Below are positions 5,491-63,960 of a stretch of DNA of 64,000 nt, piece by piece. Both the position numbers and the translations under genes were made by a program. The notes below the pieces were generated by a model. It was not told the DNA's origin and ran no database searches. It saw only the letters and a list, made by a program, of their open reading frames with translations. How positions within the stretch are numbered: the stretch's first letter is position 1; each line of letters opens with the position of its first letter. This stretch comes from Centroscyllium fabricii (taxonomy: Eukaryota), in assembly GCA_051313645.2 (NCBI GenBank), contig JBNRSN020000017.1, positions 87,668,001 to 87,732,000 of the forward strand, read 5' to 3'.

Positions 5491-7560
5491 CTGCGCGGGC
5501 GGGAGGGACATGCGTCAGAAGGCAGTGGGGTCCTTCTTTAAATATTCAGATCAGGTTCTTATGGCATCATCAGAGCCCCACTGCCATTTTAACTGGCGGT
5601 CTGTGTGGGGGTGGGGGGGGGCCGGGGCAAGTGGTTGGCATTTCCTCACCAGGCCAACCTATCAGGAAGAGCAGCCTGGGGCACAAGGAAAGCTTGGGCC
5701 TGCCCTGCCCTCGGGTTTCCCCCCTTCCCCCATCCACGAGGCTTTCCCACAACCCCCACACCCCACCCCGCCCCACCACAACCACTTACCTGAGTGCCGA
5801 GTGGACTGCTCCTTCGGGTCCACGACAGGGGCCTCCTGCCACCCTACATTGTGGTCCTGCCCACCAGGTACCTGCCACATCTCGCCGGGTGCGGCCAACG
5901 CAGGTGAAGCCTGGGAGTTAAAATCCGCCGGGAGCCTCACGTTGCAGGGATTTGGACGGTTTGCCATCCACCTCGGGCCCCACCTTGTACAACTCCTGCC
6001 CCCAGTTAAATTCCACCCTTCAGTTGGAGAGGAAGGAGCAGGCAGGTCTAAAGATTGGTGCTCTGATTCAGGAATTCTCCACCAGTGAAGAAATATTGCG
6101 GATAACAGCCCTTCCAAGCCCACACAGTTAGGGGCAGCAGCAAACACTCAGCTGGGCAAGGAGGAAGTGGAAAGATAATCAGGTGGGGCAACAAGACGGG
6201 CAACGGGCAGGTTTCTCAACCTCTCACGCTCCTGCAGGATGTAGCAGACCTTTTCTGAAGGTGTGTTGATTGCTAATTGGGCATCTATGAAATAACACTT
6301 CCATATTTTTCTAGATTTCATTGTCAAGTGATGAGAGTGAGCCAGTCACTTAAATTGCTGTGGATTTAAATCATGTAATTCCCCAATCCGCCATTTGGGA
6401 ACAAATTATTGACTAATAAGAGAAAATGTCAAAAATTCTTGGGACAAAATGTAGAAAAGGACAATTCCTGTTGGCTATGTGCAGCATTAAGGAGGAATGG
6501 GACGTCGGCAGGCTCTTAACTTTGAAGGGGGTGCGGGGGAGGGGGGGCGGGGGGGAAGGGAGAGGAATGCGCCCATCAATTGTCTCGTCATATAGTTGTC
6601 GTTAAAGTTGATGGAGGAAGATGCCTGTTGGTGAGTAATAGTCATTGGGGAGAAAATGGAGTGAAAATGTGAAGAGCCAGAAATAATAACGTCGAACACC
6701 ACTGGGTCATAATCATGGAACTCCCTACCTAACAGCATTGCAGGACTGCGGCGGTTCGAGAAGAAGGCCCACCGCCACCTTCTCAAGGGCAACTAGGGAT
6801 GGGCAATAAATGCCAACCTTGCCAGCAATGCCTGCACCCCGAGAATTAATAATTTAAAACACTGACTGGAATTGTGGGTCCTTGACATTTCTCGAGTGTA
6901 TTTTAAAAGCTCTTTAAGTCCTCCTAGTCTGTTAGAGACCCAGTATGTTATATAAATATATATATATATATATAGTGGTTCCACAATATAATGGTACTGG
7001 GGGGTTTACACTGCAGCTCAGATTTGGATATAGTAGCAATATTGAAACAGCTGCTATCATCAGTCTAAAACAGGAACTGTGCATGTGTGAGGTTGTGAAT
7101 GCAAAGTTATTCAAATGCCACAACGGTGACTTTGAGCCTCTGCTCCGAGCCTTCCCCAATGAGGAGGGGTAGAGCTTTTATTCTCAACTTGTATCGAGTA
7201 CTTTTGTAGCGCAAGGTTGAATGAAAAGGAGAGGCTTTGAGTCAGCATTATACAGAACAACTGTCCAACCTCTGCTAGTAAGCACACCCTCCGTGCTGTG
7301 GCTGGAACAGCCACATCAAACCAGTCGATGCCTCGTCAGACACTGGTAGTTCAGAGAATATCACAGAGGGTGTGTTTACACTACAACTGTGGTATTGGTG
7401 TGAAGCAGTTTTGTTGGCACCGACACTGCAGTTATGATCTAAATCCATCTTCAATATGGAGTTAGGTTCTGGCCCGATACCAGAGTGAAGCAATGTGAGA
7501 GTCCCTATCAGACATAGTCTCACTGTTCAACAGTTCAAGCTCTGTGGCCTGATTTACACT

Positions 7561-7979
7561 CCAAGGGTAAAGGGTTAATGCCATTTACAAAAGGTTGCAG
7601 TGTAAAGAGTGAATGCCTTTTGCAGCAAGCCCAGTGTAAAGGGTTAATGCATTTTACAGAGGGCCCCGTGTAAAGGGTTAATGCCTTTTACAGAGGGGCC
7701 AGTGCAAAGGGTTAATGCCTTTTACAGAGGGCCCAGTGCAAAGGGTTAATGCCTTTTACAGATCCCAGTGTAAAGGGTTAATGCCTTTTGCAGCAAGCCC
7801 AGTGTAAAGGGTTAATGCATTTTACAGAGGGCCCCGTGTAAAGGGTTAATGCCTTTTACAGAGGGGCCAGTGCAAAGGGTTAATGCCTTTTACAGAGGGC
7901 CCCGTGCAAAGGGTTAATGCCTTTTACAGATCCCAGTGTAAAGGGTTAATGCCTTTTGCAGAGGGCCCAGTGTAAAGGA
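7561..7979. repeat. 31-34 bp minisatellite, left part
   Basis: Unit GTGTAAAGGGTTAATGCCTTTTACAGAGGGCCCA, about 12 copies. Confidence 0.95.
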
Positions 7980-8225
7980 TGTGGTAACCGTAATTACCAG
8001 TGTATATATATGGATGTGTTCACCTTCAACTCTGTACATTGTGTGCAAGGCCAGGTCAGCCACACCTCTAACTCCTCCCCTCAGGTGGGAGCATATAGGT
8101 GAGGGCCGCCCTGCCCCCGCTCATTCTCGCCTTGAACTCGACAGGAGACTAGCTCCATTGTAAGTGAATAAAAGCCTGTAGTTTGGGTAACTACTTGTCT
8201 TTCGTGTTTGATTGACGATACGTCA
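7980..8225 (+). repeat. 5' LTR (246 bp)
   Basis: TGTGGTAACC...ATACGTCA; TATA-like CATATA near 8092; AATAAA near 8167; last 78 bp repeated at 11651-11728. Confidence 0.9.
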
Positions 8226-8249
8226 ATTTTATTCACTTAAATTTAAAAC

Positions 8250-11200
8250 ATGGAGAGTAACGCAGTGAAACCGGATTGCCTCGATATCAATCCTCAGGCA
8301 CCCGATGCTGCTAACAACTTCGAACACTGGTTCGGCCTGGTCGAGGCCTACATGAAGGCTGTAAAGGCTACAAGTGATGAGGACAAACTCCAGGTACTCT
8401 CATCACGGATCAGCGGCCGGGTGTATTCCTTTATCCGCGGCCTCAAGACGTACCGGGAAGCGATGAAGAAACTAAAGGACTGCTACATGCGCCCGGCCCA
8501 CTTGGTCTATGCCAGGCATGTTCTGGCGACCAGACAACAACGACTCGGTGAGTCCAATGAACAGTTCTTACTAGCACTTCAAGCCCTCGCACGGGCCTGT
8601 GACTGCCAGCCAAGGACGGCGGAGGAAGAAGCGAACCTCCAAATACGGGATGCATATGTGGCTGGACTCAGGTCCAGCCAGGCCCGCCAGCGGCTACTGG
8701 AGCAGGACACACTGTCGCTTGAGTCTGCAATAACTCTTTCAAATGCGGTGGACGGAGCGCTCCGAAAGCTGGAGGCGTACGGAGACCACGGCCCACACGA
8801 TACCCCTGACCCCTGGGCGACACCGCGACAGGCCGAGACCCCCATGGTGGCACCGGCGGCTGCGAAGACACTGGCGGGGCACAGATGTTACTTCTGCGTA
8901 CAAGGGAAGCACCCGCGGGCGCAGTGCCCCGCAAGGAACGCGACCTGCGAGCAGTGCGCAAAGAAGGGGCACTACGCGAACGTGTGCAAGTCCAGCCCAG
9001 CCTCCGTCTCCAGACCCAACAGCGCGGCCTGTGAAAACAGCGATGCCACTCCATGGCCCAAAGTAAGGTGTTGCAGCGCGACCCAGCAGCGGTCAGCCGG
9101 GGGTAAATTGCGGGCGCCTCAGTCCCCCTTAACTGTACGGCGGAGGCCGGCCGCGCGCGCGGCACGGGTGCCGCCACTCCAAACACGACAGCGGACGGCC
9201 ATATGCAACCCCCTGGCGCCGCCATCTTATCCTCAGCGGTCGGCCATGTGCGACCCCCCGGCGCCGCCATCTTTTCCACCGCGGTCCGCCGCGTGCGAAC
9301 CATGGGCGCCGCCATCTTATCCTCAGCGGTCGCCGATGTGCGACCCCCGGCGCTGCCATCTTGTCCACCGCGGTCCGCCGCATGCGAACCACGGGCGCCG
9401 CCATCTTGTCCACCGCGGTCGGCCGCGTGCGAACCACGGGCGCCGCCATCTTGTCCACCGTGGTCCGCCGCGTGTGAACCACGGGCGCCGCCATCTTATG
9501 CACCGCGGTCAGCCACGTGCGAACCACGGGCACCGCCATCTTTTCCACAGCAGCCAGACTCGAGCACATTGCCAGCGCCGCCATCTTACGAGCGGCCATC
9601 TTGCCAACTGCCCCGGCCGGGGCCCCAGCTAGCGGAGGGCCCCCACTCACACACATACACCTCGGCCTCAGCCACTGTCGATCAGGCTAGGCCGCACACC
9701 TTGTCCAACTCCATGATGGGGATTAAGGTGGACAGGCACGTCACTAACTGCCTGTTCGACACCGGTAGCACAGAGAGCTTTATAAACCCCGACACAGTGC
9801 GGCGCTACGCACTGCGGACCCAGCCCACACACTGCCAAATCTCCCTTGCCTCAAAGTCCCACACGGCGGACGTCACCGGCTATTGCAGCATCACGCTCAC
9901 GATCAGGGATTGCATTTACCGCAACTTTAAGTTGTACATCCTCCAGCAGTTGTGCGCCGCAGTCTTACTGGGACTGGATTTCCAGTGCCACCTGAAGAGC
10001 ATGACGATGGATTTCGGTGGAAACCTGGCCCCCCTCACCGTCAGTAGCCGGGACAATCCCTACTTAAAGCAGAGCTCGACTTGCGGCCTGTCCACATTAA
10101 AAGAAAGTCGACCCCCCCTCACTGTTCGCCAATCTCGACCCCAAATGCAAGCCCATTGCTACTAAAAGTCAGCGTTACAGTGCAGGGGACCGGGCGTTTA
10201 TCAGGTTGGAATTCGGGCGTATGCTGCAAGAAGGGATCATTGAGGCTAGCACCAGCCCTTGGCGGGACCAGGTCGTAGTGGTTAAGACGGGCGAGAAACT
10301 GCGCATGGTCATTGACCCCCTCCCCCGCATCTCGGATATGGTAAACCAGATCGCCCAGTACAAGGTCTTTTCCACAATCAACCTTAAGTCGGCGTATCAC
10401 CAACTCCCCATCTGGAAATCCGACAGCCAGTACACCGCCTTCGAGGCGAACGGCCGGCTCTACCACTTCCTCCGGGTCCCCTTCGGCGTGACCAACAGAG
10501 TGTCGGTGTTCCAGAGGGAGATGGACCGTATGGTTGACCAGAACAGGTTGCAGGCCAACTTCCCCTACCTGGACAACATGACCATCTGCGGCCATGACCA
10601 GCAGGACCACGTAGCCAAACTCGCCAAATTCCTGCACACGGTGAAACGGCTGGATCTCACGTACAATAAAGACAAGTGTGTCTTTAGTACGGATCGGCTC
10701 GCTATCCTCGGATACGTGGTGGAAAACGGGGTCCTCGGCCCCGACCCATAGCGTATGCACCCCTTGCAAGAGCTGCCCTTACCTCACAACCCCAAAGCCC
10801 TGAGGAGATGTCTAGGGTTCTTTTCTTATTATGCGGAATGGGTCCCACAGTACGCCGATAAGGCCAGACCTCTCCTCAAGGCCGACGTCTTCCCCCTCTC
10901 GGAAGAAGCCCAAATGGCATTCGCTCGGATTAAGGAAGACATCATCAAGGCGACCATGCACGCCGTTGATGTGTCCATCCCTTTCCAGGTGGAGAGTGAC
11001 GCTTCGGACTTCACCCTTGCCACCACCCTGAACCAGCGTTTTTCTCCCGGACCCTACAGGGACCCGAAACTCGCCACTCAGCAGTGGAAAAGGAGGCCCA
11101 GGCCATCGTGGAGGCAGTGCGCTACTGGCGTCATTACCTGGCCGGTAAGCGTTTTACCCTGCTCACCGACCAACGGGGTAAGATCAAGAATGATAAGATC

Positions 11201-11655
11201 CTGCAATGGCGGATCGAGCTCTCGACTTACGAGTACGACATTCTTTACCGTCCAGGCAAACTCAATGAACCCCGGATGCACTGTCCAGGGGAACGTGCGC
11301 CAGCGCCCAGCTGGACCGGCTGAAGGCCCTCCACAATCGCCTCTGCCACCCGGGTGTCACCAGACTCGCCCACTTCGTCAAATCCCGTAGCCTCCCCTAC
11401 TCCATCACGGAGATAAAGGCTATGACCAAAGAGTACCCTGCCTGTGCTGAGTGCAAACCCCAATTTTACAGTCCAGACACGGCGCACATCATCAAGGCCA
11501 CCCGCCCCTTTGAACGCCTGAGCGTGGACTTCAAAGGCCCCCTCCCCTCCACTGACCGCAACTCGTATTTCCTCACGGTCATAGACGAGTTCTCACGCTT
11601 CCCCTTCGCCTTCCCCTGTCCAGACATGACGAGCGCAACGGTGATCAAACACTAG
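8250..11655 (+). pseudogene. Gypsy gag-pro-pol, disrupted
   Basis: ORF pieces 8250-9632, 9203-10165, 10206-10751, 10755-11390, 11084-11323, 11422-11655; 1-bp loss near 9345; YLDD changed to YLDN; stop at 10749-10751; integrase truncated. Confidence 0.9.
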
Positions 11656-11728
11656 CTCCATTGTAAGTGAATAAAAGCCTGTAGTTTGGGTAACTACTCG
11701 TCTTTCGTGTTTGATTGATGATACGTGA
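11651..11728 (+). repeat. 3' LTR remnant (R/U5 part only)
   Basis: Near-identical to 8148-8225; joined directly to integrase sequence. Confidence 0.9.
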
Positions 11729-12030
11729 AAGGGTTAATGCCTTTTACAGATCCCAGTGTAAAGGGTTGATTCCTTTTACAGATCCCAGTGTAAATGTTTA
11801 ATGCCATTTACAGTAAGCCTAGTGTAAAGTGTGAATGCCATGTACAGCGGGCCCAGTGTAAAGGGTTGATGCCTTTTACAGATCCGAGTGTAAAGGGTTA
11901 ATGCCATTAACAGCAAGCCCAGTGTAAAGGGTTAATGCCATTTACAGAGGGTCTGGTGTAAAGGGTTAATGCCTTTTACAGAGGGCCCAGTGTAAAGGGT
12001 TAATGCCTTTTAGAGGGCCCAGTGTAAAGG
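11729..12030. repeat. 31-34 bp minisatellite, right part
   Basis: Same unit as 7561-7979; resumes in register after the TSD. Confidence 0.95.
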
Positions 12031-13296
12031 CAGGAAAAAAATCAATTTCCTGTAACATTCACATTATAGATGATTTCTCAGATGAAAGGGCGTTTGTGGT
12101 CGGGGAATGTTCATTTTGATGTTGCTCTTTTTGTAATGCAGCCTTTTAGCCTTCAGTGAACAACCTCTTATCTCTCCACAGGCCTGACAGGGGTGCTCTC
12201 ACTGATTGACTCCATTGTAATTATCAATAGACTCCCAATTAGTCATGCACTCAAAAGCCATGGAATGAAGTGGCCCTGTTTTTAAAAATATGAAAGAGGT
12301 TTAATGACCACACAAGCGTTTTCTTTGCCTGTGGGAGAGTACATTCCCATGAATTTTTGATCTGGGCGTACTTTTGGTCACTACAAGGATGCACTTAGAA
12401 TATTAAAACACTAGCTGGCAATATTTAGCCTTTGAAAGGGATGCAGGAGCGGTTTAAGAGTCCCACTAATTTGTTTGCTAAGGCAGCTGTATATTCATTT
12501 TGTTGGGTTGAGAATGCCGGTGGTTAAAGAAAGGAAAAAACTTACTGCTTCACCCAATAATGCTACAGCTCGATTAATATTAGTATTTAAAGATTATCCT
12601 CATTCGATGATACTGTTAAACTATTTTGTTTTTTTTAAAGAAACTAACTTGATCAGCAGCTTATAACAGCAGAATTGTTTTGTGTAATTAAGACTGCAAC
12701 ACTGCATAAAAATGTCAGCAATAGTTAGATTTACGAAGGTTTCGCGATGCATCAGTCATGCTTCAGGGTCTCACACTACAACACATGGGTTTTGTAGCTT
12801 GCAGGGCGGCTATGACAGCTGCAGCCTCAGTACGTGCGTTTACGGTGCCTTACTGCATCCACAATAACAACAACTTTTATTTATATAGCGTCTTTAACAT
12901 AGTAAAACATCTCAAGGCGCTTCACAGGAGCGTCAGCAGACAAACTTTGACACTGAGAAGTCATACAGGGAATACAATGTACGAAATATAAGTCATACAG
13001 GGAATACAGGGTACGAAATATAAATACCGTGAATAGAATGTACTGAGTATAAGAAAGACCGGCAAATTATTAAAAAAAAAAAAAAAATGTATCCGGATGA
13101 CCAACATGCGAATCACCAAGAAGGGCTTTCCTAAGTCCAGTTAAATGTTATACTTGTTTTGTTTGTATTGTTATTGATGTACCATTTTTGTAATGCTTTG
13201 GCAACAACGGTTGATACCTTTCATGCCAATAAAGCTAATTGAATTGAAAAAAAAAAAATAGTGGAACCGGTGCCCAAAGGTTCAGTGAAAGAGGTA

Positions 13297-30904: not shown

Positions 30905-31765
30905 AGTGAAGAGATGCACATAGGCACAGCATATATATAGTCAGAGAACACTGCCAGATTGATTACAGGTAATTTTTCTAACTGCCCTTTATCACACCTC
31001 GGCAGAGAGATAATCACAGCAATCAAAGGTGTGAATGGTGTCCAAACAGGTCAGTCAGGAAAACATGCCATCAAAGAACAATGAAGTGGGGTCACAAGGG
31101 GACAAATGTTGCAGTGCTGGGGCCTGCATGAAAAACAAACAAAAAACAAACTAGAAACCACAAAAAAAAATTATTTTTTTTACTGGAAATCACAGCAGGT
31201 GATATAGAGAGAACAAGCCAACGATGACTCGAGTCTGGATGACTCTGCGTCAGGTGGGGTTACACGTAGCGTGACATGAAGCCAAGATCCCGGTTAAGGC
31301 CGTCCTCATGAGTGCGGAACTTGGCTATCAGTTTCTGCTCGACGATTTTGCGTTGTCGTGTGTCTCGAAGGCCTGCTTGGCTTCATGTCACATTACATGT
31401 AACCCCACCTGATGTAGAGTCATCCAGACTCGAGTCGTCGTCGGCTTGTTCTCTCTACACAGATGCGGCTGGACCTGCTGTGAGTTCCAGCAAAAAAGAT
31501 GTTTCATTTTTTTTAATGGTTTCTAGTTTGTTTTTTGTTTTTCATGCAGGCCCCAGCACTGCAACATTTGACCCCTTGTGACCCCACCTCATTGTTCTTT
31601 GATGGAATGTTTTTCTGACTGACCTGTTTGGAGATCATTCACACCTTTGATTGCTGTGATTATCTCTCTGCCGAGGTGTGATAAAGGGCAGTTAAAAAAG
31701 TTACCAGTAATCATCTGGCATTGTTCTCTGACTATATATGCTGTGCCTATATGCATCTCTTCACT

Positions 31766-45309: not shown

Positions 45310-45538
45310 TGATGCGCGATCATTTATACTCGAGACGGAGTTGAGAATACAACTGAGGCTTTTATTCACTAAGAACCCTGGAACATCCTTAGGCTGACTG
45401 GCAACTCCTTGTAGTGGGCCAGGCTCCCAGAGTCTGGGCCTATATCAGGTAGGCTGGGGGCAGAGTCAGCTTCAGGCATGCCCAGGCATGTAAACACACA
45501 GGCAAGAGGCAACTATATACAAACAGTGGTTTACCACA
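45310..45538 (-). mobile_element. Solo LTR (229 bp), related to the Mag-like element's LTR
   Basis: Minus strand TGTGGTAA...CATCA; 5-bp TSD AGTGT; shares AGTGAATAAAAGCCT with 8163-8177. Confidence 0.85.
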
Positions 45539-58149: not shown

Positions 58150-58953
58150 AAGATGGTGGTGCGCATAAACGCAGTGGCTTTGCGTCTCCCAAGATGATGC
58201 TGTCCGCTGGTTCCCGTACTGGTTCTGAAGTGGACGGCGGGGTCGGCGTGGTAGAGCATCGGGATCCTTGCGATCGGAGCACCGGGGTTGACGCACTGAA
58301 GCCATCGTGGTCGGAGCGCCGGGGGCCTGAGCGTGGCCGGGGCATAGGGGCCGTCATGTCCGGAGCGCCGGGGCCTGCATGGCTGGGCGCCGGGAGCATC
58401 AAAGCCATCGTAGCTGGAGCGCCGGGGCCTGCGTGGCTGGGTGCCGGGAGCATCAAGGCCGTTGTGGCCGGAGCGACGGGGCCTGCATGGCCTGAGCATT
58501 GGGGCCGTTATGGCCGGCGTGCCGGGGCCTGCGTGGCCGGGAGCATCGAGGCCACCATGGCCTGAATACCGGGGCCTGCATGGCCTGAGCATCGGGGCCA
58601 TTATGGCTGGAGCGCCGGGGCCTGCGTGGCCGGGAGCATCGAGGCCATGGTGGCCTGAGCATTGGGCCTTTATGGGTGGAGCGCCGGGGCCTGCGTGGCC
58701 TGAGCATCGAGGCCGTTATGGCCGGACGCCGGGGCCTGCGTGGCCTGAGCATCGAGGCCGTTATGGCCGGACGCCGGGGCCTGCATGGCTGGGAGCATCG
58801 AGGCTGTCGTGGCCAGGGCCGGGGTCTAACAGACTGGGACTTACAGGAGAGGACATTTTAACATCTGCACCATTTCTTGGGAGATTGTATGTTTGCATTT
58901 TGTTGTATTATGTATGTTCACTTTACAATGACAATATATTGAATTGAATTGAA
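58150..58953 (+). mobile_element. Non-coding retroelement with internal GC-rich 45-51 bp tandem repeat and (TTGAA)n tail
   Basis: Starts near AAGATGG; unit GGAGCGCCGGGGCCTGCGTGGCC..AGCATCGAGGCC about 10 copies at 58300-58820; ends ACAATATATTGAATTGAATTGAA like the Rex1 tails. Confidence 0.55.
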
Positions 58954-59514: not shown

Positions 59515-59759
59515 TGTAGCGCCGGCAGGGCCTAGGAACCACACGTGAGCCAGAGCTAGAGAAAACACAGCTTTAATATACTAGACAAAACAAGAAAGAG
59601 AGTGAACCACTCGCAACAAGCGTATTTAAACAGTCCCGCGGTTGGTGACGTCATCGCGTCGGCCAACGTGGCGACGTCGTCGCGTCACCCGGATGAGCGG
59701 GGCTTTGCTCCGCAGAGTTCCCGTGGCGGATTCGATGTCCCAGTGGGCGTGCCGCCACA
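59515..59759 (-). repeat. 3' LTR
   Basis: 3 substitutions relative to 63716-63960; preceded on the minus strand by short purine tract GGGGAG. Confidence 0.95.
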
Positions 59760-59801
59760 CAGCTCCCCGCAGAATCCGTCCGGGAGGAATAGTAACAGAG
59801 T

Positions 59802-62800
59802 CTATGTGTGCCGTTGGGGTGGCCGGATGATGCGGCCGGACCGTGTTGTCTGTTGCTCCTGGTTCTGCGGTGGAGTGTGGGCAGGTTTTGTTGCGGGAGG
59901 GCGACCGCGTCGTGGTGGTTGTGCGGGGACCGTTGTCTCACCCGCTATAAAGTGTGCCGGCTTGAGCCGGTCTTTTGTCACAGTGTCAGTCCTGTTGCCC
60001 ATTTGTAATTCAAAAGCTTTAGCTCCCGCCCGAAGCACTCTGTAGGGGCCATCGTATGGTGGCTGTAGTGGAGATCGGTGTCCGTCGCGCCGGACGAACA
60101 CAAATTTAGCGTTTTTAATGCCGTCCGGCACCCGAGCTGCCGTCTCTCCGTGCCGGGCCACTGGTAGTGGCTGGAAAGCTCGTGCCGGGTTGGCGAAGTC
60201 TTTTAAATACTGGTCGGCTGACCAGGGAGCGTTGGGCTCAGCCAGGAACTCGCCCGGCACCGTTAAAGTTTGGCCGTAGACGAGCTCTGCTGCCGAGGCG
60301 TTTAGGTCTTCCTTGACTGCCGAGCGCAGCCCAAGGAGAACCCATGGAAGGCGGTCGGTCCACGACACGTCCTTGAGCGTGGCTCGTAGCGATGCCTTAA
60401 TTGAGCAGTGGAACCATTCGCATAGCCCGTTCGCTTGTGGGTGGTATGCGGTGGTTCGATGTAGTGTCACCCCAAGGTCGCGGGCGATGGCCGCCCATAA
60501 TGCCGACGTAAACTGGGGTCATCTGTCGGAGGTGATGTCTGTGGGCACGCCGAAGCGGGCGACCCAGGTGGCGATGAACGCCCTGGCCAAGTCCGTGGTG
60601 CCGGTGGCGGTGAGGGGGACTGCTTCTGGCCAGCGAGTGTTGCGGTCGACCATGGTCATTAGGTGCGTGTGGCCCCGGGATGGCGGTAGTGGCCCGACGA
60701 GATCGATATGGACGTGGTCAAAGCATCTGGCCGGCACTTTAAAAGTCTCCAGCGGTGCCCTGATGTGCTTATGCACTTTGGAGCGCTGGCAGGCTATGCA
60801 GGAGCTGGCCCAGGCGCGGACGTCCTTGCGCAGGCCGCGCCATACGAACCGGGCCGAGATTAATTTGATGGACGCGCGGGCGCCGGGGTGGGACAGGTCA
60901 TGGAGGGTCCTAAATATGTGTTGCCTCCAAGCGTGGGGTACGACTGGCCTGGGCTGCTGTAGGGATACGTCGCAGCAGACGACGGTGGCAGCGGGGCCGT
61001 GCGCGATATTGGCCAAGTGGAGGCTGGGGAGATTAGCTGCTGCGTTGAGCAGGTCGGGGTTGGCCAGCTGGTCCACGGCCAGCTGGGCGTAATCGACCGG
61101 CAATTGGGCGGCGTTAATGGTGGGGCGTGAAAGGCAGTCAGCGACCACGTTGTCGCGGCCGGAAATGTGCTGGATGTCAGTAGTAAATTCTGACTCGGCC
61201 GCGAGTTGCCGCTGCTGCCTGGCCGACCAGGGTTTGGCGACCTTAGCCATCGCAAACGTGAGTGGCTTATGGTTGCTGAAGGCTGTGAAGTGGCGGCCCT
61301 CCAAGAGGAAACAAAAGTGTCGCACTGCCAGATGGAGAGCGAGTAGCTCCCTATCGAAGGCGCTGTATTTAACCACTGGGGGCCGGAGTTGCCGGCTGAA
61401 AAAGGCCAGGGGCTGCCACGAGTTGCCGGTCCACTGCTCAAATACGGCCCCGACCGCATGGTCAGAGGCGTCGGTGGTGAGGGCTACTCTGGCGTTGGGC
61501 CTAGGGTGGGCTAGGAGGGTGGCGTTTGCCAGGGCGGTTTTAGTTGCGGTGAAGGCGGTGGTGGCGTCGGCCGTCCACTCGACCGCAGCCTTGTTGGACT
61601 GCCCGCGGGTGGCCTGGTATAAGGGGGCCATGAGAGCGGCTGCTCCCGGGATAAAGCGGTTATAAAAATTAACCATGCCTAAGAATTCCTGCAGCTCTTT
61701 AATGGAGTGCGGGCGGGATAATTCCTGTACCGCCTGCACCTTGGAGGGCAGGGGTATGGCCCCTGTTTGGGAAATGCGGTGGACGAGGAAGTCAATAGTC
61801 TCGAGGCCGAATTTGCACTTGGTGGGGCTTAAGATAAGGCCGTGTTCGGCCAGGCGCTGGAACAGGGTCCTGAGGTGCAGGAGGTGTTCCTGGGGGGAGG
61901 TGCTGGCCACGAGGATGTCGTCTAAATAGACGAAAATGAACTTCAAGTCCCGTAGGACTGAGTCCATGAGGCGCTGGAAGGCCTGGGCCGCGTTTTTAAG
62001 GCCGAAGGGCATCCTGAGGAACTCGAAGAGCCCGAAGGGGGTAATAACGGCCGTTTTAGGAATGTCCGCCGGGTGTACCGGCACCTGGTGGTAGCCACGC
62101 ACCAGGTCGATCTTGGAAAAGATCGTACAGCCCGCTAATCTGGCGGAAAAATCCTGGATGTGGGGTACGGGGTACCTATCCGGGGTGGTGGCGTGGTTTA
62201 GGCGGCGGTAGTCGCCGCAGGGGCGCCAACCTCCGTCGGGCTTGGGGGCTATGTGGAGAGGAGAGGCCCAGGGGCTGTTGGAGCGGCGGATTATACCGAG
62301 TTGCTCCATGGTGCGGAACTCGGTGCGCGCTATCTCCTGCTTGGCCGGGTCGAGCCTACGGACGTGGGCATGGACGGGAGGGCCTGTGGTCGTTATAAAA
62401 TGCTCCACCCCGTGTTTGGCCTGTCGGGCGGTGAATGTGGGATTGGTTAGGGCGGGGAACTCCGCAAGGAGTGTGCCGTAGGCATCGGAGTCCCGGGAGC
62501 GGCATTGGGCTGCCGCGTGGGCCAGGAGTGCGGGCCCTGTGGAGCATGGGATGGTCATCATGGTATTCATGTTGACCAAGCGGCGCCGGGTTACGTCGAC
62601 CAGTAGGCCGTAGGCGCAGAGGAAATCTGCCCCGAGGAGGGGCGATGTGACCTGGGCTGTAACGAAATCCCAGGTGTACGTGTGGCTTGCAAGGGTAATT
62701 TTAAGCTTGCGGGTGCCGTATGTTTTTATACTGGAGCCGTTGGCCGCTGCTAGTGGCGGGCCCCGGGTGCCTTGTTTGGTTTCTGCAGGGGAGGCTGGCA

Positions 62801-63626
62801 CGATGCTGTGCTGCGCGCCTGTGTCGGAGAGGAACCTGAGGCCTGTGCCGCTGTCTGTAGCAAAGAGCAGTGCTGCTGTGTGGCCTACAGACATGGTGGG
62901 GGCTGAGTTGGGCCGTGGCTTGAACACGCATGGCTGGACGCAGCGGTGCGCTTTGTTGTCGAACCGCGTGTGGTAGCACCAGCCGGTGCTAGAGGGACGC
63001 GGTTGCCTAGGTGGGCGCGGGGCCCTAGGTTCAGGCGTAAAGTTATGCCTGGGGGGTGATTGGCTGCGCTCTACCGATGCGGAGTTAGGGTCGCACGTGG
63101 TTGAGCGGGTGCGCTGCGCCTCCATGAGCCTGTCGGCTTCCTCTCTGAGCTCGTCATCGCTCCGTTGGCCAAGGGCCGCCATGGCTGGTCTGATGGCGCG
63201 GGGCAGTTTAAGAAGGAAGACGGTGCGGAAGAGGGAGGCAGGGTTGGGTGTGAGCGCTTGCATCTGACCTAAGAGGTCCGATGGGTCTGCGTCCCCAAGT
63301 TCAGGGAGGTCGAGGAGCTGGCAGTCGCGCTCAAATTGAGAGGGGGTAAAAAAAATTATAAGCGCGGCCTTGAGGGATTCATACCTGCCTGCGGTGGGCA
63401 CACGCTGTATTTTTGACCACATCCGATCGATCGTCGACTGCGGTAGGGCTGAGAAGACCAGGTCGTATCGGTCGTCCCCCTGGATGCCATGTGTGCGGCA
63501 GCTGGTCTCGATGCACATAAACCAGGCCGCTGGCCGTTGCTCCCAGAACTCGGGTAGAGTTAGTCCACGTCCGACGTTCTGGCCAAGTCCTTGCGTTCAT
63601 GGAGCTTGGTTCCTTGTGTTTACCAT
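59802..63626 (-). pseudogene. Gag-Pol polyprotein frame with two in-frame TGA stops
   Basis: ATG at 63626; [13 protein letters not shown]; CYHTRF...C...C; SDTGA; YLDD; TDAS; HHCC; D-D-E region; stops at 63597-63599 and 60519-60521; no frameshift. Confidence 0.92.
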
Positions 63627-63702
63627 GTTTTCTATTTAAAAGTTCTTTGGCTGGTGGTCCCAGATCCTGCGGCAGCTTTTCTTCTTTGGAAGTCGTTCCA
63701 AT

Positions 63703-63714
63703 TCGGGGTCACCA
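63703..63714 (-). promoter_or_regulatory. Primer binding site, tRNA-Trp
   Basis: TGGTGACCCCGA, 1 nt inside the 5' LTR; complementary to the tRNA-Trp 3' end. Confidence 0.88.
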
Positions 63715-63715
63715 C

Positions 63716-63960
63716 TGTAGCGCCGGCAGGGTCTAGGAACCACACGTGAGCCAGAGCTAGAGAAAACACAGCTTTAATATACTAGACAAAACAAGAAAGA
63801 GAGTGAACCACTCGCAACAAGCGTATTTAAACAGTCCCGCGGTTGGTGACGTCATCGCGTCGGCCAACGTGGTGACGTCGTCGCGTCACCCGGATGAGCG
63901 GGGCTTTGCTCCGCGGAGTTCCCGTGGCGGATTCGATGTCCCAGTGGGCGTGCCGCCACA
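63716..63960 (-). repeat. 5' LTR
   Basis: Direct repeat of 59515-59759; ATTAAA and TTTAAATA signals on the minus strand. Confidence 0.95.

Follow-up and report, generated by a model that had tools for sequence, protein, structure and literature searches.

An LTR segment around the poly(A) signal pairs with the PBS position in an animal Ty3/Gypsy clade and may act as a self-primer

What primes reverse transcription in a Ty3/Gypsy element whose PBS position holds no TGG and is instead the exact complement of a piece of its own LTR? The question is raised by a broken element at 7980-11728, on the plus strand of the 64-kb stretch of DNA analysed here (the window). Its best solved-structure relative is Ty3 Gag-Pol, and it shows the TG...CA LTRs, the target-site duplication and the gag-PR-RT-RH-INT order of a Ty3/Gypsy element. 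The 5' LTR (246 bp, 7980-8225) is followed by a gag ORF at 8250-9632, which carries two CCHC-type arrays in its conserved part (8265-8990) and runs on into a 45-bp tandem repeat, and by a broken pol in four frame segments (9692-11646) with protease, RT (YLDN), RNase H and the N-terminal part of integrase. The remaining integrase, the PPT and the U3 of the 3' LTR have been deleted from this copy, leaving a 3' LTR remnant (11651-11728; arm, P2 and U5, as defined below) that differs from 8148-8225 at 3 of 78 nt. Because this remnant, together with a target-site duplication matching at 4 of 5 positions (7975-7979 on the left, 11729-11733 on the right), fixes the 5' LTR end at 8225, we could confirm the placement given by an earlier, sequence-only reading of this DNA: LTR end at 8225, gag ATG at 8250, and no TGG between them.

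The surroundings of the element are rich in repeats. It sits in a 34-bp tandem array that is present on both sides (7496-8063 and 11750-12049), and the 45-bp repeat between gag and protease (about 8-10 copies, ~9143-9619) is missing from complete relatives, while GC-rich repeats resembling it are found at 58331-58797. The internal deletion (11647-11651) brings integrase up against the LTR at a point 13 nt ahead of the arm, near 8150, which is also where the loose ends of subfamilies begin in contigs from public runs. A long imperfect inverted repeat of ~250 bp, MITE-like, lies at 31205-31456.

The feature of interest is a pair of segments, which we call the arm and the PBS. The arm, 8161-8173 (TAAGTGAATAAAA), includes AATAAA at 8167-8172 and is the exact reverse complement of 8227-8239, with a 53-nt loop between them; the resulting 13-bp stem extends neither inward nor outward. 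A single A (8226) separates the LTR-terminal CA (8224-8225) from the PBS match. The complementarity described earlier was thus re-derived exactly, including its start 1 nt past the LTR. The 3' LTR remnant carries the arm unchanged, and a diverged solo LTR on the minus strand (45310-45538), confirmed here with a perfect 5-bp target-site duplication, retains the arm core, AGTGAATAAAAGCCT, with T at the equivalent of 8162. The longest LTR complement starting at most 3 nt from the LTR end measures 13 nt in the real sequence; when the LTR was dinucleotide-shuffled 20,000 times, it never reached 12 nt (0/20,000; maximum 11). A second Gypsy element in the window (59515-63960, minus strand, nearly whole, with 245-bp LTRs that are 99% alike) served as a control: it has a TGG-type PBS, and merely an 8-nt LTR complement past its LTR. 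Its site resembles the tRNA-Trp site given for the CsRN1-clade element GyRex2 in the available part of PMC3587641. Helices as such are not rare in this DNA, since about nine other window sites hold inverted repeats of at least 13 bp with short loops, and the predicted total folding energy of the leader is ordinary (z -1.55; 13/200 shuffles fold as well). The case for the helix is one of position and covariation, not of stability.

Covariation was assessed in relatives picked by gag protein homology (~35% identity) and not by the stem. Metagenome contigs yielded 135 loci related by the gag alignment; 80 of them entered the analysis and 78 could be scored, L016 and L080 lying too close to contig ends. 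Scoring, by a search that required CA-N-T near the gag start, gave a duplex score of at least 12 one base after CA in 54/78 loci, 9-11 in 9/78 and below 9 in 15/78. Applied to 600 random positions, this search gave 12 or more in 4/600. Many of these loci are repeats from few assemblies, and they were therefore grouped by gag DNA into 19 families (L080 excluded), 17 of which have a member scoring at least 12. In L016 the duplex is visible by eye across the wrap-around end of the contig, and in L032 the arm lies off the contig. Where an LTR pair was present (23 loci), the LTR end was cleanly fixed by the 3' LTR in 11, all of which continue CA-A-T. A full duplex was found in 18/20 loci with open gag, versus 36/58 with broken gag. 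Four later loci (L081-L084) came from prokaryote assemblies; L084 is without its 5' end, and the other three (3/3) score 14, 14 and 13, with L083 having T as spacer and no RCCU. Host contamination is the probable reason why elements of an animal clade turn up on contigs from bacterial genome assemblies. No relative was seen in four scans of viral contigs.

For comparison between families, we used 18 representatives, i.e. the window element and one intact-duplex member from each of 17 families, so that the figures that follow are a best-case count. Over 13 positions in 18 representatives, Watson-Crick pairs stand at 233/234 positions, against a maximum of 188 (of 234) in 100,000 permutations of the family labels. 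Helix positions 1-4 are nearly constant and positions 5-13 show 2-4 pair types each, giving 17 distinct PBS 13-mers. The compensatory changes between the PBS and the AATAAA region that the sequence-only reading had asked for are therefore present in relatives, with complementarity kept and both sides changed. The same reading would have fallen with a normal tRNA PBS in the family; TGG occurs within the first 6 nt after the LTR in 0/18 representatives, and it stands. The idea that a tRNA PBS was deleted in this one copy was rejected on this count (18/18 without TGG), as was a chance origin of the arm/PBS match, on the LTR shuffles, the label permutation and the random-position null. The conserved arm/PBS helix is real, clade-wide and well supported.

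A second hairpin, P2 (RCCU...RGGY; 8174-8188 in the window), adjoins the 3' end of the arm. RCCT lies directly 3' of the arm in 16/18 representatives and closes P2, which has at least 4 bp in 16/18 (null mean 3.3, maximum 10 in 5,000), the two representatives without a 4-bp P2 being L002 and L024. The window P2 is weak, with 5 pairs of which 3 are G-U; other copies have A at 8185 (37-75% of depth), which pairs with 8177.

Changes on one or both strands are also seen within families. One locus, L007, is ~1% from its sisters and has a G>T change of the arm in both LTRs together with the matching C>A transversion in the PBS. L007 has ~25 private changes over 4.2 kb, from which we estimate the chance that the partner base was hit independently at ~0.002. 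This is a single case, and selection could also produce it. Two further two-sided changes are found, in L010 and L012, and one-sided changes outnumber two-sided ones within families, an excess that post-insertion decay would give (examined in L003 alone). Variants were also read from contigs of public runs that contain the window element's family (X1, X8, X10 and X11), in which they are unphased. The shares of 8162 A>T and of its partner change, 8238 T>A, were 25% and 26% in X1, 25% and 24% in X8, 23% and 17% in X10, and 33% and 48% in X11. At another arm position, the change 8166 G>T is frequent (35% in X1, 37% in X8), and its partner change at 8234 is absent among the 40 variants listed out of 85; the X8 tally includes a single C>A place, already taken by 8288, which leaves no room for a partner at 8234. 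Subfamilies whose U3 and U5 differ from those of the window element are suggested by loose ends at 8150 and 8202.

Where the arm would lie in the transcript was judged from promoter motifs. A TATA-like box (8093-8099), whose function is inferred, lies 68 nt ahead of the arm in the LTR of the element and is retained at the corresponding position of the solo LTR, 73 nt ahead; 8093 varies in other copies, and a group of 7 loose ends in X1 has a canonical TATA box there. An initiator-like motif (8121-8127) puts a predicted start at A8123, 29-30 nt past the TATA-like box and 38 nt before the arm, so that the arm is predicted to be internal, at +39 to +51 of the transcript. A clear TATA/initiator pair was not found in the LTRs of seven relatives. 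The earlier suggestion of an internal R segment as primer fares accordingly in two parts: the polarity and the constant 1-nt offset agree with a primer, and the internal position is a prediction from promoter motifs.

The same helix would bear on the poly(A) signal. In predicted folds of the window leader, AAUAAA has an unpaired probability of 0.05 with the PBS and 0.88 without it, and in 12/16 relatives it is predicted to be unpaired at above 0.3 once the PBS is left out. AATAAA or ATTAAA lies inside the arm in 14/18 representatives. Occlusion of the 5' poly(A) signal, also proposed earlier, is thus predicted by folding; it cannot be the whole story, as 4/18 arms are without either hexamer, and in L008 and L014 the hexamer lies outside the helix.

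We propose that a cut, predicted at the 3' end of the arm, turns the arm into the primer of reverse transcription. Self-priming in one form or another, from the 5' or the 3' arm, appears likely from the sequence comparisons, and its 5' arm form is, in our judgement, probable. The arm fits a primer role because its 3' end faces the LTR end and the one-base offset is fixed. The 5' leader would fold so that P2 stacks on the arm/PBS helix, and the element's RNase H would then cut after ...AAA (8173), as in Tf1. From the cut end, RT would copy the spacer A, U5 and P2, yielding a short strong-stop DNA (53 nt in the window element, 20-72 nt in relatives), which would jump to the 3' end via the sequence that separates AAUAAA from the poly(A) site. 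Such a jump would account for the position of the arm's end at the poly(A) signal. As a likely side benefit, the helix would hide AAUAAA in the 5' LTR while the 3' LTR copy stays open, the masking being limited to the 5' LTR because the PBS comes after it. Less certain steps are that the arm lies ~40 nt inside the transcript, and that the primer sequence is returned to the PBS during plus-strand synthesis. The fullest version of the proposal is tentative, and we would sooner doubt it than rely on it as a whole: a widespread animal, non-chromovirus Gypsy clade would have evolved self-priming independently of Tf1, with a 13-16 bp helix acting both as primer/PBS duplex and as 5' poly(A) switch, an internal primer ~40 nt in, a cut placed by the stacked RCCU hairpin, and a primer copied back into the PBS. 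Copying of this kind would let both strands drift together without two separate mutations.

A variant of self-priming would take the primer from the arm of the 3' LTR, over 4 kb or from a second packaged RNA. A cut after ...AAA there would remove P2 and the poly(A) tail, and RT would copy to the cap and jump via the R segment upstream of the arm. The sequences and the polarity are the same, the 3' remnant has the exact arm, templated PBS changes fit equally well, and on this route the predicted 38 nt ahead of the arm would have a function. Against this, the 5' arm lies only 20-72 nt from the PBS, with a pairing probability of 0.88-1.0 in local folds, and should occupy the site first; the portions of the literature examined offered no precedent. 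We regard this route as unlikely.

The helix might instead merely silence the 5' poly(A) signal while something else primes. The hexamers in 14 of 18 arms, and the predicted masking with the PBS and opening without it in the window element and in 12 of 16 relatives, are what such a function would produce. It has no use, however, for the four arms without a canonical hexamer, or for L008 and L014; it also does not need a partner strand exactly 1 nt past CA, and it leaves the absence of any other PBS unexplained. Silencing as the sole function is, on this evidence, quite unlikely.

Very unlikely, in our view, is a helix that serves packaging, dimerisation or a U5-IR-like structure and is opened for another primer, such as a host RNA fragment or a protein. 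Precedents of a kind exist: the Tf1 PBS is flanked by structured leaders (PMC10085805, available part), and non-canonical, unexplained priming is described for Skipper and Tcn2-5 in the accessible text of PMC7175516 and PMC5006619. In the present clade, however, the PBS position is itself one strand of the helix, and one host RNA cannot match all PBSs because these comprise 17 different sequences across the 18 families represented. Priming by a host tRNA half or small RNA, with the LTR match as a by-product, is hardly credible: half-tRNA priming exists in copia lineages according to the part of PMC6317226 available, but here the arm and the PBS covary, both among families and inside them, and an Rfam search of 7980-8400 gave nothing above threshold (three matches lay far below). 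A search of the 64-kb window for tRNA genes found none.

Self-priming from the 5' arm is the reading we carry forward, and its interest depends on which clade the element belongs to. The window RT piece is 70% identical to a ray protein and 47-57% identical to the other relatives checked, versus 30% identity to the second Gypsy element in the window. The names of the proteins it matches make a cartilaginous fish the probable host. Named relatives, at the protein level, come from rays, a tunicate, a sea cucumber, a sea anemone, nematodes, a crab and spiders. Five complete relatives, 4.0-4.2 kb in length, have a single ORF of 1,166-1,188 aa. Two CCHC arrays are present in 5/5 complete loci and in 7/8 proteins checked, the eighth being without a gag part, and a chromodomain search at E 0.1 found none in 5/5 complete relatives, the corresponding part being deleted in the window copy. 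By this chromodomain test, the clade is not Tf1/sushi. Two CCHC arrays are typical of the Gag of Mag and of Micropia/Mdg3 elements (PMC2577118, in the part available) and, being shared in this way, are not specific to Mag. The description of the element as Mag-like therefore holds in a restricted sense: two CCHC arrays and the missing chromodomain fit it, which is a fit by domain features and not by a tree. Two further observations concern the clade at large. In place of YxDD, the catalytic motif of RT is YxDN in the window element (10560-10580) and in several relatives whose ORFs are fully open (L010, L011, L014 and L015), and other members keep YLDD. At the far end of the element, the PPT is followed by AA before the LTR TG in 8/8 loci checked (L002, L004, L010, L014, L015, L024, L033 and L079); the opposite end has CA, then one A.

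To our knowledge, self-priming has so far been proven in one element alone, the yeast Tf1. If our proposal is true, it would add a separate animal origin of self-priming, beyond the chromoviruses and the one plant copia lineage for which it has been predicted, and we infer that priming of this kind would escape control by host tRNA fragments. The 17 helix sequences with fixed geometry form a natural series on how RT and RNase H pick the cut, and on whether a primer can be internal. PBS-finding tools would miss such elements because the PBS complements the element's own LTR and not a tRNA.

In HIV-1, the polyA hairpin hides AAUAAA in a helix in the 5' repeat only, but its masking strand lies inside R/U5 and a tRNA primes; in the window element, the predicted masking strand is the PBS. 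The sizes of Cigr-1 (a 245-bp LTR and one 3.6-kb ORF) resemble those of the window clade, and we take it to be a candidate member by size alone. Cigr-1 is placed under Mag in the supplement of PMC6238403, as far as that source was available. The Mag lineage (A, B and C clades) shares with the present clade the two CCHC arrays in Gag and a wide animal range (PMC2577118), as well as a clear AATAAA in the LTR (PMC3601003), going by the accessible portions of both. Self-priming is unmentioned for Mag or other animal Gypsy clades in the available portions of PMC3601003, PMC8220671, PMC6238403 with supplements, PMC3587641, PMC12471100 and PMC2774666, and the literature examined, where accessible, does not report it for Mag or Cigr-1. 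A full-text literature search gave no description of the arm/PBS/poly(A) arrangement; Repbase Reports, the Cigr-1 paper and most subscription papers fell outside its scope, and a prior note may exist.

Among the sources available in part, self-priming is attributed to Tf1/sushi and Tcn1 chromoviruses and to TAR/Houba copia elements (PMC6317226, PMC4600332, PMC10085805, PMC6934838, PMC5006619). The plant TAR/Houba/Osr-1 Ty1/copia lineage and the Tcn1 chromoviruses are alike in that self-priming is likewise predicted from PBS-LTR complementarity; TAR, however, belongs to another superfamily, Tcn1 is a chromovirus, and a link to the poly(A) signal is unmentioned in the accessible text (PMC6317226). 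The nearest parallel is with Tf1/Tf2 of Schizosaccharomyces pombe, Tj1, Tosmo1-3 and the Tf1/sushi chromoviruses, which share the Ty3/Gypsy domain order and have a PBS right after the LTR that complements the element's own LTR, with no tRNA site (PMC7175516, PMC4600332, PMC10085805, in the parts available). Unlike these, the window clade has no chromodomain, carries two CCHC arrays in a single ORF of ~1,180 aa, and has an arm overlapping the poly(A) signal. In Tf1, it is the opening 11 nt of the transcript that base-pair with the PBS, and the RNase H cut falls behind them (PMC7175516, available part), whereas the window arm is predicted from motifs to be internal, at some distance from the first 11 nt. 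The Tf1 PBS is also flanked by a pretzel structure (PMC10085805, available part); a Tf1-like pretzel of three duplexes was not evident in 20 local folds of our elements, in which a different hairpin recurs, the LTR-internal one adjoining the arm. What the present comparisons add to the sequence-only reading is this abutting P2 hairpin, an arm change with its matching PBS change in one copy, and a promoter-motif prediction of an internal arm.
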